Shown piece after piece: positions 37,909-63,702 of a DNA stretch of 64,000 bases (within the stretch, counting starts at the first letter, position 1; each line of letters starts with the position of its first letter). This DNA is from Candidatus Nomurabacteria bacterium (GTDB lineage: Bacteria > Patescibacteriota > Minisyncoccia > Phycocordibacterales > UBA918). The notes beneath the pieces are model-generated. The model saw only the letters and a program-made list of their open reading frames with translations. It was not told the DNA's origin and ran no database searches. Both the position numbers and the translations under genes were made by a program. The stretch lies in contig CP060227.1 in the NCBI GenBank assembly GCA_023898525.1, positions 173,634 to 237,633 of the forward strand, read 5' to 3'.

Positions 37909-37931
37909 GCCCCGCAGCTACGCTGCGGGGC
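37909..37931. repeat. GC-rich palindrome GCCCCGCAGC-TAC-GCTGCGGGGC (related to the 30232..30278 hairpin)
   Basis: seen directly in the 235-bp intergenic region upstream of the tRNA. Confidence 0.5.
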
Positions 37932-37975: not shown

Positions 37976-38003
37976 TTGAATATTCCAATTTTTTCTGTAC
38001 AAT
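37976..38003 (+). promoter_or_regulatory. candidate sigma70-like promoter (TTGAAT-16 nt-TACAAT) about 60 nt upstream of tRNA-Asn
   Basis: hexamer match by eye; spacing 16 nt. Confidence 0.3.
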
Positions 38004-38099
38004 ACAACCACTTGAGTCAAACCAGACTTAAGTGGCTAATAGCCAGAACAATCACAATTAAATATTCCGCCGTAGCTCAGTGGTAGAGCAGTTGGCTGT

Positions 38100-38705
38100 G
38101 AACACACCGTGTTTCAAGCCTGATATACTAAATACAATGAGTGTACCAGACAAAAGAACATATGCCGATCGTGCCGAGTATTTGAAAAAAGCTGTTTCTG
38201 ACAGAAGAAGAAAACTGAAGGAAATGGCAATTGAATACGGGGGTGGCAAATGTCAAATTTGTGGTTATAAAAAATGCAAGAGAGCTTTAAGCTTTCACCA
38301 CAAAGATGCTAACAAGAAAGACTTTGGTCTTTCTGCAAAAGGACTCACTAGATCTTGGAATAAGATCAAGAAAGAACTTGATAAATGCATCCTAGTTTGT
38401 GCAAATTGCCACATGGAACTACACGATGGTATCACGCAGCTTCCTACTGAAAAGTAGGTCGAAAACGAGGTGAATTGCTGGAAGCCTTAGCAAGTAATGT
38501 TGCAGGTAATCAGCAGCCAAGCTTGAGTTGAAAAACTCTTGAAGGTTCAGAGACTATCCTTTATGGAGTACCCAGCTCTAGATTTAATTTTCAAAATTTT
38601 GAAAATTAAATCTAGAGCTGGGGAAGCGCCTCGCATCCAACAACAGCAAAAAACTGAAAAGGATGATGATATAGTCCACCCCTTTTAGAAATATTAGGAC
38701 AAGTG
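38100..38705 (+). mobile_element. group I self-splicing intron with embedded HNH homing endonuclease ORF
   Basis: conserved P (AATTGCTGGAAG 38473-84), Q (AATCAGCAGCC 38508-18), R (GTTCAGAGACTA 38545-56), S (ATGATATAGTCC 38665-76) elements; 26-bp perfect P8-position hairpin 38571..38623; intron preceded by U and ends in G. Confidence 0.75.
38137..38457 (+). CDS. HNH (His-Me finger) homing endonuclease encoded in the 5' peripheral region of the group I intron
   Basis: CQICGY...ALSFHHKD...CANCHMELH (four Cys plus HH...N...H); 107 aa from ATG 38137 (ORF track extends upstream via GTG into the tRNA exon). Confidence 0.7.
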   Translation: MSVPDKRTYADRAEYLKKAVSDRRRKLKEMAIEYGGGKCQICGYKKCKRALSFHHKDANKKDFGLSAKGLTRSWNKIKKELDKCILVCANCHMELHDGITQLPTEK

Positions 38706-38749
38706 TAACCAATTGGTCGTAGGTTCGAATCCTACCGGCGGAGCAAATC

Positions 38750-39825
38750 TGAATAATCTCACATACATATGAGACTCCTTAAATAAGGAGTAATGAGAAT
38801 ACATAACATTTTAAGGAACACCAGAGGGTTTGCCAAAGCGGCTGATAGTGCTCTAAAGTGGCAGACAATGAAAAACAAACAGGAGGTCGAAAGAAGAGTT
38901 AAAATACTCACGTTTTGGCAAAAACATGGTACTAATACCACCAAAGATGCTTTTGGCGTATCTAGACCAACTTTATTTAGATGGCAAAAAGAACTAAATG
39001 ATAGTAATGGTAATATCCAAGCCCTAGACCCCAAGAGTACTGCTCCTAAGAAACGAAGAGTGAGACAGATATCACCACCACTAGAGCAAGCTATTATCAA
39101 CTGGCGTACTAAGCGACCACGGATTGGTGGGAAAAAGCTGGTACCGCTATTGAAGAAGGAAGGATTCAAGGTGTCAGTTTCCTATGTTAATCGCTGTATC
39201 AGTGATCTTAAAGAACTAGGTAGACTACCGAATCCAGTTAAGCTCTCTTGGTACGCTAAGAGTGGTACACACAAAGAACAAAGAAAAACCAAGGTTAAAA
39301 AACAAAGAAGACCACAAAAACAAGGTTTGGAGATAGACACTATCGTGAGACACATAGATGGCACTAAACGGTACATACTCACCGCCATAGACATAGAAAG
39401 ACGGTTTGCTTACGCTCGTACTTATACCAGTCATTCTTCAAATAGTGCTCGAGACTTTCTAAAACAACTTATACACTATACCCCTTTTAGTATAGATGAG
39501 ATACAGACTGATAATGGTTCAGAATTCGCTAAATACTTCCACGAAGCTTGTTTAACTCTTAACATCAACCATTATCACACTTATCCACGTTGTCCTAAGA
39601 TGAATGCCTATATAGAGCGATTCAATCGTACCGTTCAAGAAGAACACATTATTTATCACCGATCCCTGCTTCGAGATAGTATTCCTGACTTCAATGATTC
39701 ACTGAATGAATGGTTGTATTGGTATAACCATGAGAGACCGCATGAAGGACTGGGTCTTTTGTCGCCCATGGAGTATTATAGAGAACATTATGAGATAGAG
39801 TCTCAAAGGTGGTGAGATCGTACAA
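38750..39825 (+). mobile_element. IS481-family insertion sequence, copy 1 (1076 bp), inserted 7 bp downstream of the tRNA-Asn 3' end
   Basis: 100% identical over 1076 bp (compared directly in sequence) to 62627..63702; imperfect terminal IRs around TGAATAATCTCAC / GGTGAGATCGTACAA; possible 5-bp flanking repeat AAATC. Confidence 0.8.
38793..39815 (+). CDS. IS481-family DDE transposase (HTH + rve integrase core)
   Basis: DDE triad context: IDTIVRHIDG..., TDNGSEFAKYF, NAYIERFNRTVQEE; YNHERPHEGLG; 340 aa single ORF. Confidence 0.85.
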   Translation: MRIHNILRNTRGFAKAADSALKWQTMKNKQEVERRVKILTFWQKHGTNTTKDAFGVSRPTLFRWQKELNDSNGNIQALDPKSTAPKKRRVRQISPPLEQAIINWRTKRPRIGGKKLVPLLKKEGFKVSVSYVNRCISDLKELGRLPNPVKLSWYAKSGTHKEQRKTKVKKQRRPQKQGLEIDTIVRHIDGTKRYILTAIDIERRFAYARTYTSHSSNSARDFLKQLIHYTPFSIDEIQTDNGSEFAKYFHEACLTLNINHYHTYPRCPKMNAYIERFNRTVQEEHIIYHRSLLRDSIPDFNDSLNEWLYWYNHERPHEGLGLLSPMEYYREHYEIESQRW

Positions 39826-40321: not shown

Positions 40322-40352
40322 ACAAGTTCGAACATCCTCCACCCAGCGGAGC
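40322..40352 (+). repeat. 31-bp direct repeat, copy 1 (ACAAGTTCGAACATCCTCCACCCAGCGGAGC)
   Basis: identical to 41061..41091. Confidence 0.8.
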
Positions 40353-40432: not shown

Positions 40433-40996
40433 ATGGCAATAACTGAAACCGATTACATTAAAAAGGTACCGCTTCAAAAAATTCATGCACTCATGACTAG
40501 ACAGGACATGAATATTGGGTATATGTTACTTATGGGTAAATGGGCTGATTCAGCACTAACATGCGAAGAACATCCTTTTGGTTTAGATTTACCCGCATAC
40601 GAGAACGATAGTTGTGGTCCTTATAAAAATAGACAAGTAAGATTTATACCAAGAACAGATGCTGATGCGGAAATCAACACGTTAATCGCCCATCTTAATT
40701 GGACCCTAGATGGTAGTAGTACAGTTTCGCGCTTGCGTGTCATATACGCAGAATGCAATGAAAACAATCCTAATGAACATTCCGTCTATGTGGAAATATG
40801 GACCAATGCAGGAGTACTCATGGCTGGCGGCTCTGATTGTGACATTGAAGGTGGTATAGCAGCCTCTAATCTCCTGGGTATAGTGCACTTACTTAAATTA
40901 CTATACGTGACAGAAATTGAAACAATTGAGATACCCTATTGTATAGCAAAAGTACATAGTGACAATTTTCACAATAAGTATAGATACCTCATTTAA
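40433..40996 (+). CDS. hypothetical protein (187 aa) bracketed by the 31-bp direct repeats
   Basis: ORF with no recognisable motif. Confidence 0.35.
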   Translation: MAITETDYIKKVPLQKIHALMTRQDMNIGYMLLMGKWADSALTCEEHPFGLDLPAYENDSCGPYKNRQVRFIPRTDADAEINTLIAHLNWTLDGSSTVSRLRVIYAECNENNPNEHSVYVEIWTNAGVLMAGGSDCDIEGGIAASNLLGIVHLLKLLYVTEIETIEIPYCIAKVHSDNFHNKYRYLI

Positions 40997-41060: not shown

Positions 41061-41091
41061 ACAAGTTCGAACATCCTCCACCCAGCGGAGC
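41061..41091 (+). repeat. 31-bp direct repeat, copy 2; its 3' end is part of a strong hairpin
   Basis: identical to 40322..40352. Confidence 0.8.
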
Positions 41092-62626: not shown

Positions 62627-63702
62627 TGAATAATCTCACATACATATGAGACTCCTTAAATAAGGAGTAATGAGAATACATAACATTTTAAGGAACACCA
62701 GAGGGTTTGCCAAAGCGGCTGATAGTGCTCTAAAGTGGCAGACAATGAAAAACAAACAGGAGGTCGAAAGAAGAGTTAAAATACTCACGTTTTGGCAAAA
62801 ACATGGTACTAATACCACCAAAGATGCTTTTGGCGTATCTAGACCAACTTTATTTAGATGGCAAAAAGAACTAAATGATAGTAATGGTAATATCCAAGCC
62901 CTAGACCCCAAGAGTACTGCTCCTAAGAAACGAAGAGTGAGACAGATATCACCACCACTAGAGCAAGCTATTATCAACTGGCGTACTAAGCGACCACGGA
63001 TTGGTGGGAAAAAGCTGGTACCGCTATTGAAGAAGGAAGGATTCAAGGTGTCAGTTTCCTATGTTAATCGCTGTATCAGTGATCTTAAAGAACTAGGTAG
63101 ACTACCGAATCCAGTTAAGCTCTCTTGGTACGCTAAGAGTGGTACACACAAAGAACAAAGAAAAACCAAGGTTAAAAAACAAAGAAGACCACAAAAACAA
63201 GGTTTGGAGATAGACACTATCGTGAGACACATAGATGGCACTAAACGGTACATACTCACCGCCATAGACATAGAAAGACGGTTTGCTTACGCTCGTACTT
63301 ATACCAGTCATTCTTCAAATAGTGCTCGAGACTTTCTAAAACAACTTATACACTATACCCCTTTTAGTATAGATGAGATACAGACTGATAATGGTTCAGA
63401 ATTCGCTAAATACTTCCACGAAGCTTGTTTAACTCTTAACATCAACCATTATCACACTTATCCACGTTGTCCTAAGATGAATGCCTATATAGAGCGATTC
63501 AATCGTACCGTTCAAGAAGAACACATTATTTATCACCGATCCCTGCTTCGAGATAGTATTCCTGACTTCAATGATTCACTGAATGAATGGTTGTATTGGT
63601 ATAACCATGAGAGACCGCATGAAGGACTGGGTCTTTTGTCGCCCATGGAGTATTATAGAGAACATTATGAGATAGAGTCTCAAAGGTGGTGAGATCGTAC
63701 AA
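62627..63702 (+). mobile_element. IS481-family insertion sequence, copy 2 (identical to copy 1, same orientation)
   Basis: 1076 bp identical to 38750..39825 by direct comparison; flanks differ; possible short flanking repeat AGCTT/GCTT. Confidence 0.8.
62670..63692 (+). CDS. IS481-family DDE transposase (identical to 38793..39815)
   Basis: identical 340-aa translation. Confidence 0.85.
   Translation: MRIHNILRNTRGFAKAADSALKWQTMKNKQEVERRVKILTFWQKHGTNTTKDAFGVSRPTLFRWQKELNDSNGNIQALDPKSTAPKKRRVRQISPPLEQAIINWRTKRPRIGGKKLVPLLKKEGFKVSVSYVNRCISDLKELGRLPNPVKLSWYAKSGTHKEQRKTKVKKQRRPQKQGLEIDTIVRHIDGTKRYILTAIDIERRFAYARTYTSHSSNSARDFLKQLIHYTPFSIDEIQTDNGSEFAKYFHEACLTLNINHYHTYPRCPKMNAYIERFNRTVQEEHIIYHRSLLRDSIPDFNDSLNEWLYWYNHERPHEGLGLLSPMEYYREHYEIESQRW

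Follow-up and report, generated by a model that had tools for sequence, protein, structure and literature searches.

The DNA analysed here (hereafter the window) is a stretch of 64,000 nucleotides (nt) from the genome of a Candidatus Nomurabacteria bacterium (GCA_023898525.1, contig CP060227.1, positions 173,634 to 237,633), and it carries an asparagine tRNA gene, tRNA-Asn(GUU), that is interrupted in its anticodon loop by an insert of 606 nt. All parts of this gene and of its insert lie on the forward (+) strand. Exon 1 (38066..38099) covers the tRNA positions 1-35 and ends with C32, U33, G34 and U35 (...GGCTGT), while exon 2 (38706..38743) extends from U36 to the discriminator base G73 and starts with TAACC. 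The exons flank a group I intron of the subgroup IA type (38100..38705; GAACAC...CAAGTG), the last base of which, G38705, is the terminal guanosine (omega-G), and the loop of its first helix, P1 (~335 nt), contains a gene of 106 amino acids (aa) plus stop (38137..38457) for a putative HNH homing endonuclease. Based on the evidence that is presented below, it is highly probable that this is a Paceibacteria tRNA-Asn(GUU) gene that is split between positions 35 and 36 (35/36) by a subgroup IA group I intron with an HNH gene. ARAGORN in its default mode found no tRNA genes across the whole window. When the exons were joined, they gave a 72-nt molecule that was recognised by ARAGORN as tRNA-Asn(gtt), to which it assigned 73 bases, with the 7-nt anticodon loop CUGUUAA in its cloverleaf, no CCA encoded at its 3' end, and a U1:A72 pair and G73, which we take to be Asn features. 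These exons and this product are exactly those that had been proposed in the first-pass annotation of the window, which was made from the sequence alone. Moreover, in a BLAST search against E. coli records, the spliced tRNA matched tRNA-Asn with an identity of 94.5% over 55 nt in an alignment that was unbroken over the junction; tRNA-Lys was also matched (90.2%), and tRNA-Thr was absent among the eight top E. coli matches listed. The locus has already been published: Nakagawa et al. 2026 (mSystems, January 2026, PMC13011429), who analysed 95 complete Patescibacteria genomes and found that a group I intron interrupts 15 tRNA-Asn(GUU) genes at 35/36, list it as GCA_023898525.1, 211699-212377, Asn(GTT), 35/36, and give its intron 606 nt. 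Of this entry, 399 nt are printed in the paper; they match the window exactly from 38066 on, across the end of exon 1 and over the intron's first 365 bases. Both the class and this member of it have been described before, and the locus is not new.

According to the first-pass annotation, only an intron at 35/36 would satisfy both the Asn product and the rule that the 5' exon ends in U and the intron in G. The site that it chose is right, but it is not the only one that complies with the rule and the argument was circular: at the 33/34 boundary two bases upstream (intron 38098-38703), the exon also ends in U and the intron also ends in G, and the resulting loop, CUUGUAA, is that of tRNA-Thr(UGU). 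Because the rule alone fits both boundaries, independent comparative evidence was sought. A scan of species-representative genomes gave 52 loci with homologous HNH genes, and the 47 in which a complete split tRNA-Asn gene was delimited served as the test set. A tRNA-Thr(UGU) gene with an intron at 33/34 is what ARAGORN calls in its intron mode, and ARAGORN and tFind give the same call for this genome and miscall many such genes as Thr(UGU) 33/34 (PMC13011429). This reading is, nevertheless, scarcely tenable. The end of exon 1 (CTGT), the start of exon 2 (TAA) and the last intron base (G) under 35/36 are each found in 47/47 loci, whereas the base at position -3, the omega base if the intron lay at 33/34, is A in 20 of them. 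Under 35/36, all of the loci have the anticodon GTT; 33/34 would turn it into TGT or CGT.

The internal guide sequence, i.e., the 3' strand of P1 (CGCAGCT, 38435..38441), leads to the same boundary. Its GCAGC is invariant in the 47 loci; G38436 forms a wobble with U35, the following C, A and G pair with G34, U33 and C32, respectively, and C38435 pairs with the intron base G38100. The first intron base and the base 5' of GCAG covary without exception, as G:C (39 loci) or A:T (eight loci); this fixes the register of P1, in which the U.G wobble falls on U35, the position that 35/36 needs. Under 33/34, U33 would face the A of the invariant GCAG and not a G. Additionally, the best intron-less match of this tRNA, which has U1:A72 and G73 in its body, is tRNA-Asn with 96% over 55 nt (PMC13011429). 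In the complete genome, ARAGORN counts four tRNA-Thr genes and tRNAscan-SE three (PMC13011429), and the extra one is consistent with a miscall of the window locus. For the relative GCA_016700035.1, GTP-dependent in vitro splicing was found to occur at 35/36, as revealed by sequencing the product, and was abolished by the change of the omega-G to C (PMC13011429). In a ligated product from the window, the 35/36 junction would read GGCUGUUAACC (GGCUGU joined to UAACC), and the alternative junction would read GGCUUGUAACC. The comparison of the sequences thus supports a tRNA-Asn(GUU) gene interrupted at 35/36 and not a tRNA-Thr(UGU) gene interrupted at 33/34.

The placement of the guide within the intron was also obtained from the relatives. 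In five of them, which have short introns (206-269 nt), 5-8 nt separate CTGT from the GCAGC downstream of it, whereas in the long introns the invariant GCAGC (38436-38440 in the window copy) stands directly after the HxxG(I/T)TQ codons of the open reading frame (ORF) and directly before P2. The P1 and P2 that were drawn by Rfam at 38388-38430, within the ORF, were rejected as an artefact of stretching the model over the ORF because the endonuclease-less relatives place CTGT, the 5-8-nt loop and GCAGC side by side; the true guide and P2 are at 38435-38458. Another candidate guide, AAGCC at 38117-38121, was rejected as well, as U33 would then face an A and no wobble would form. At its 5' end, the P1 loop has a small putative hairpin that was read from the sequence (GAACAC-ACC-GTGTTT, 38100..38115), and the introns of the relatives start similarly with GAAC...GTTC.

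The intron's catalytic core was identified by a covariance search, which had been suggested as a check of the first-pass annotation. The Rfam model RF00028 (Intron_gpI) matched 38388-38698 (+) over its full length (1-253) with 69 bits (E 2e-15) against a gathering score of 50 bits; this was the sole Rfam match in the 64 kb, and the introns of the relatives scored 63-91 bits against the same model. The strings that had been proposed as the P, Q, R and S elements are located at 38473-38484, 38508-38518, 38545-38556 and 38666-38677, each of them occurs only once in the window, and they coincide with J3/4-P4, P4'-P6, J6/7-P7 and J8/7-P7' of the Rfam alignment, respectively. A hand-drawn P2-P9 structure, in which P7 was treated as a pseudoknot, was then evaluated on a MAFFT alignment of the 47 cores. 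Standard pairs occupied 87.5% of the cells compared to 34-47% when the 3' partners were slid by 1-3 columns, and double-sided changes were found in 38 of the 54 pairs; none of 500 shuffles attained these values. Helices P2, P3, P4, P5, P6, P8 and P9 covary, while P7 is invariant and hence uninformative; the core that had been expected to be foldable is therefore backed by covariation.

In the window copy, the hairpin P2 (CCTACT-GAAA-AGTAGG, 38443..38458) has compensatory changes in 6/6 pairs, with 94% of its cells paired, and P3, which is formed by the 5' strand at 38466..38472 and the 3' strand CGCCTCG at 38627..38633, has seven pairs, four of which are double-changed (95.6% paired). The P4-P5 domain (38476..38515), which comprises P4 (TGCTGG/TCAGCA), P5 (GCCT/AGGT) and a distal hairpin, holds the P and Q elements; it was placed using the Rfam alignment, as was P6 (CC/GG plus a distal GAGTT-GAAA-AACTC, 38517..38545). 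The 5' strand of P7 (GACTA, 38552..38556), which is a part of R, pairs with TAGTC within S (38672..38676) through 5/5 invariant pairs in the 47 sequences. P8 (CATCC ... GGATG, 38634..38665) has five pairs, four of them double-changed (87.5% paired), and in P9 (CCTTTTA-GAAA-TATTAGG, 38681..38698) six of the seven pairs covary (78% paired). GAAA loops cap both P2 and P9. Between P7 and the 3' strand of P3 lie a mini-hairpin, P7.1 (TCC-TTTAT-GGA, 38557..38567), in which 84% of the cells are paired and the changes are only one-sided, and P7.2, and this is the layout of the subgroup IA introns. This aligns well with the findings of Nakagawa et al., in which nearly all of the Patescibacteria tRNA introns were assigned to IA using covariance models and a homologous HNH-bearing tRNA-Asn intron was assigned to IA1 (PMC13011429). 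Moreover, blastn gave partial matches of the core to untranslated stretches of Flavobacterium, Staphylococcus, Bacillus, Salmonella and Escherichia phages with identities of 60-90%; the best among the matches listed had 77.8% over about 97 nt, and about 36% of the core (P3-P7) was covered. These similarities fit a phage-like IA intron. As a separate observation, four of the aligned introns, which are of the Moranbacteria type (L040, L042, L047 and L050), have an extra insertion of ~50 nt, apparently two hairpins, between P3/J3-4 and P4 (alignment columns 49-99) that the other 43 sequences do not have.

The gene in the P1 loop overlaps the guide sequence and P2 with its final seven codons and stop. 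The protein has the motif order CxxC...HH...CxxCH...H, and 38 homologues all have C39, C42, H54, H55, C88, N90, C91, H92 and H96; 35 of the 38 match the Pfam HNH family at E<=0.01 (best 2.1e-6). An AlphaFold model that was built from the alignment was confident, with a predicted local distance difference test (pLDDT) score of 87.4, and contained the strand-strand-helix elements. The ratio of the nonsynonymous to synonymous substitution rates (dN/dS) was 0.06-0.07 relative to two relatives, L002 and L003, which shows that the gene is kept by purifying selection and is not decaying. The claim that the 5' part of the intron holds an intact HNH ORF is thus well founded, and the invariant residues fit a protein that would have retained its nuclease activity.

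Several observations weigh against a functional intron with an HNH gene. P1 is short (5 to 7 pairs), and P9 of the window copy has two U.U mismatches. The Pfam HNH model (PF01844) gives the window protein only 19.5 bits (E 1.1e-3), which is below the cut-off of 21.4, and although the best PDB folds that were found by Foldseek were all HNH nucleases (Cap5, Cas9 HNH domains, T4 endonuclease VII and Gme HNH), these matches were weak (E>=0.17). Sequence searches of the PDB with the protein gave only marginal matches, i.e., the HNH region of a group II intron maturase (E 0.03-0.4) and McrA, and no close solved relative. Finally, P7.2 (38571..38622) is an unusually long perfect palindrome of 52 nt (26+26 nt), which is missing from the closest relative, L002, and could affect folding. 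It lies between P7 and the 3' strand of P3, was found once in the window and is, therefore, not a repeated element within these 64 kb. The first-pass annotation had described this perfect 26-bp hairpin correctly but had placed it at P8, which is actually located at 38634-38665. In L002, the HNH protein of which is 96% identical to that of the window, the P7.2 slot has only 21 nt while its flanks are 92-98% identical, and P7.2 has therefore been recently replaced or expanded.

The long P7.2 and the weak P9 could be taken as signs that the intron is decaying, that it splices poorly and that the tRNA gene is becoming a pseudogene, to which the presence of an insertion sequence 6 nt past the tRNA could be added. 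We consider this very unlikely. The invariant core (P7, R, S, the guide and the omega-G) is intact, P7.2, a hairpin at the periphery, differs in length from relative to relative, and the same P9 sequence is shared by L002 and L023. Moreover, for the complete genome with the identical sequence, Table S2 of the survey reports zero tRNA-Asn genes by tRNAscan-SE, ARAGORN and tFind (PMC13011429), and according to that survey the window locus is the sole tRNA-Asn gene of the genome. Because the three tools find no other tRNA-Asn, the splicing of this one is probably essential to the organism, as had been anticipated for the case of a single gene, and the loss of its function would probably be lethal.

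For the intact tRNA-Asn intron, the following course of events can be proposed. The intron would fold in the transcript, with P1 formed by exon bases C32-U35 and intron base G1 with CGCAG(CT) at 38435-38441, so that the U35.G wobble would mark the 5' splice site. Exogenous guanosine would then attack this site, after which the terminal G38705 would occupy P7's G-binding site and ligation of the exons would yield a tRNA of 72 nt, G73 included, to which CCA would still have to be added. The HNH enzyme, of the beta-beta-alpha-metal type, may cut or nick intron-less tRNA-Asn alleles and in this way drive homing, by analogy with other intron-borne HNH enzymes. Splicing of the window copy is presumed from its sequence and from the relative for which in vitro splicing is known; that relative, GCA_016700035.1, carries no endonuclease gene (PMC13011429).

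Homing alone may not be the reason why the HNH gene has been kept. For the gene of a homing endonuclease that sits within a single-copy gene, its sequence is unusually well conserved: besides the strong purifying selection, the identity is 51-96% across many Patescibacteria lineages, the gene lies inside an essential gene, and the theory of the homing cycle expects endonuclease genes that have become fixed to decay. A role at the level of the host or the intron, such as a maturase-like aid in splicing, could explain this. Such a role is, however, unlikely, since the catalytic HH...N...H residues and the zinc cysteines are invariant, which fits a retained nuclease activity, and endonuclease-less relatives of the intron exist, one of which splices alone in vitro. 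Horizontal homing that occurs repeatedly would account for the conservation just as well.

The HNH protein has 1324 homologues at E<=1e-3 in a large protein collection, and the best 120 of the 1324 are 69-100% identical to it. An identical protein is encoded on GCA_020632175.1, a metagenome-assembled genome of Candidatus Nomurabacteria, and on a contig of 1.09 Mb. The titles of the 52 loci are mostly those of Patescibacteria groups, namely Paceibacterota and the Kaiser-, Campbell-, Giovannoni-, Moran-, Andersen-, Doudna-, Woese- and Peregrinibacteria, while a few name Bdellovibrionales or Candidatus Fimivivens. The family is thus present in at least 52 species-level genomes and comprises over 1300 protein clusters. 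Six other Patescibacteria genomes have a free-standing HNH homologue beside an endonuclease-less intron of the same tRNA-Asn gene. It is located directly upstream of the tRNA-Asn gene in L025 (2001-2630), L026 (2001-2566), L030 (1218-1774), L046 (2001-2652) and L051 (2001-2600), whereas it is convergent and downstream in L041 (2001-2601); in L026, L030 and L046 its stop codon falls inside the 5' end of the tRNA. In the five delimited loci, the neighbouring introns have 206-269 nt and no ORF, while the intron of L051 was not delimitable and had an Rfam intron match at 2346-2551. Most of the free-standing proteins have the signature GA(F/L)(D/E)LHH...CHRE compared to RALSFHH...CHME in the intronic ones. 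The arrangement of a free-standing HNH gene beside a short intron resembles "collaborative homing" or an intermediate of endonuclease capture, and the free-standing copies bear on the question of how introns acquire endonuclease genes. Tentatively, it is possible that the HNH family that is tied to the Patescibacteria tRNA-Asn intron is an actively maintained system in two arrangements, in the P1 loop and free-standing, rather than a rare relic. If so, the free-standing genes would represent endonuclease capture at a living intermediate stage, or a case of collaborative homing, in a single-copy essential tRNA gene. The survey concluded that endonuclease genes are rare and that horizontal transfer is limited (PMC13011429).

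The first-pass annotation considered an intron in tRNA-Asn to be unusual, as it knew of four interrupted bacterial tRNA classes. This was out of date: Williams 2020 (bioRxiv 10.1101/2020.01.27.920355) raised the number of the bacterial tRNA classes that are interrupted by group I introns from four to 21, and both this class and this sequence appear in the survey, in which "Asn.4Ug" and an occasional Thr miscall are credited to Williams 2020 (PMC13011429). An HNH ORF in a tRNA intron had also been supposed to be unusual, but endonuclease genes in bacterial tRNA introns have precedents in the same paper, i.e., PD-(D/E)XK in tRNA-fMet, LAGLIDADG in tRNA-Arg and HNH (PF01844) endonucleases encoded by four tRNA-Asn introns (PMC13011429). 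Compared with the Patescibacteria tRNA-Asn introns of subgroup IA at 35/36, the window intron has the same host gene, site, phylum and subgroup, the HNH gene (in four members) and the Thr miscall, and nothing essential differs. In the sections of the survey that deal with these introns, there is no description of the endonuclease gene as lying in the P1 loop and overlapping the guide and P2, and the paper does not mention the free-standing arrangement or the P7.2 palindrome (PMC13011429). Our analysis adds to the paper only minor points or points from outside the window: the HNH gene in the P1 loop, the free-standing HNH genes elsewhere and the insertion sequence 6 nt past the tRNA. The locus also shows why standard annotation reports a genome without tRNA-Asn, which bears on the completeness estimates of Patescibacteria genomes, and it makes the translation of every Asn codon in the organism dependent on a ribozyme; both the annotation failure and this dependence are already in print for this genome (PMC13011429).

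Other systems share fewer features with the window intron. The intron of the cyanobacterial tRNA-fMet(CAU) is likewise a group I intron in the anticodon loop of a bacterial tRNA that carries a homing endonuclease gene, but it differs in its site (33/34), in the type of the enzyme (PD-(D/E)XK instead of HNH) and in the host (Cyanobacteriota). That enzyme is I-Ssp6803I, and the intron is of the IC type. According to the survey, subgroup IC accounts for 81% of the bacterial tRNA introns and none of the Patescibacteria tRNA introns belong to it (PMC13011429). The classical IC3 introns, which interrupt the tRNA-Leu(UAA) of Anabaena/Nostoc (34/35), the tRNA-Ile of Azoarcus and the tRNA-Arg of Agrobacterium, have in common with the window intron that they are self-splicing introns of the anticodon loop; unlike in these, the segment from P7 to the 3' strand of P3 holds P7.1 and P7.2 in the window intron, which is typical of IA, and the window intron also has the 35/36 site and an ORF. 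GNRA tetraloops are present on P2 and P9 of the IC3 introns as they are in the window intron. Subgroup IA introns with homing endonucleases occur in phages, for example the td intron of T4 and the introns of the SPO1/Twort-like phages, and the P7-P7.1-P7.2 layout of the window intron resembles that of td. In contrast to these phage introns, the host gene in the window is a cellular tRNA gene and not a phage protein gene, and the ORF is located in the P1 loop.

The surroundings of the tRNA gene were also inspected. The spacer of 235 nt that precedes the tRNA contains a GC-rich perfect hairpin at 37909-37931 (GCCCCGCAG-CTACG-CTGCGGGGC), and the promoter-like TTGAAT-16-TACAAT occurs at 37976-38003, ~62 nt upstream of the tRNA; a scan for promoters and terminators around the tRNA gene revealed nothing above chance, these two elements included. 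Downstream, an insertion sequence of 1076 bp begins 6 nt past the discriminator base. It is present in two copies that are 100% identical (38750-39825 and 62627-63702) and encodes a 340-aa transposase of the rve type (integrase core), and both copies are flanked by short target duplications (ATC/AAATC and GCTT/AGCTT). There is no insertion sequence at this place in L002, in which a terminator-like hairpin directly follows the tRNA. Farther downstream, a perfect direct repeat of 31 nt, ACAAGTTCGAACATCCTCCACCCAGCGGAGC, at 40322-40352 and 41061-41091 flanks an ORF of 187 aa (40433-40996) that had no Pfam match, and a small cassette may have been inserted here, with the repeats at its ends.

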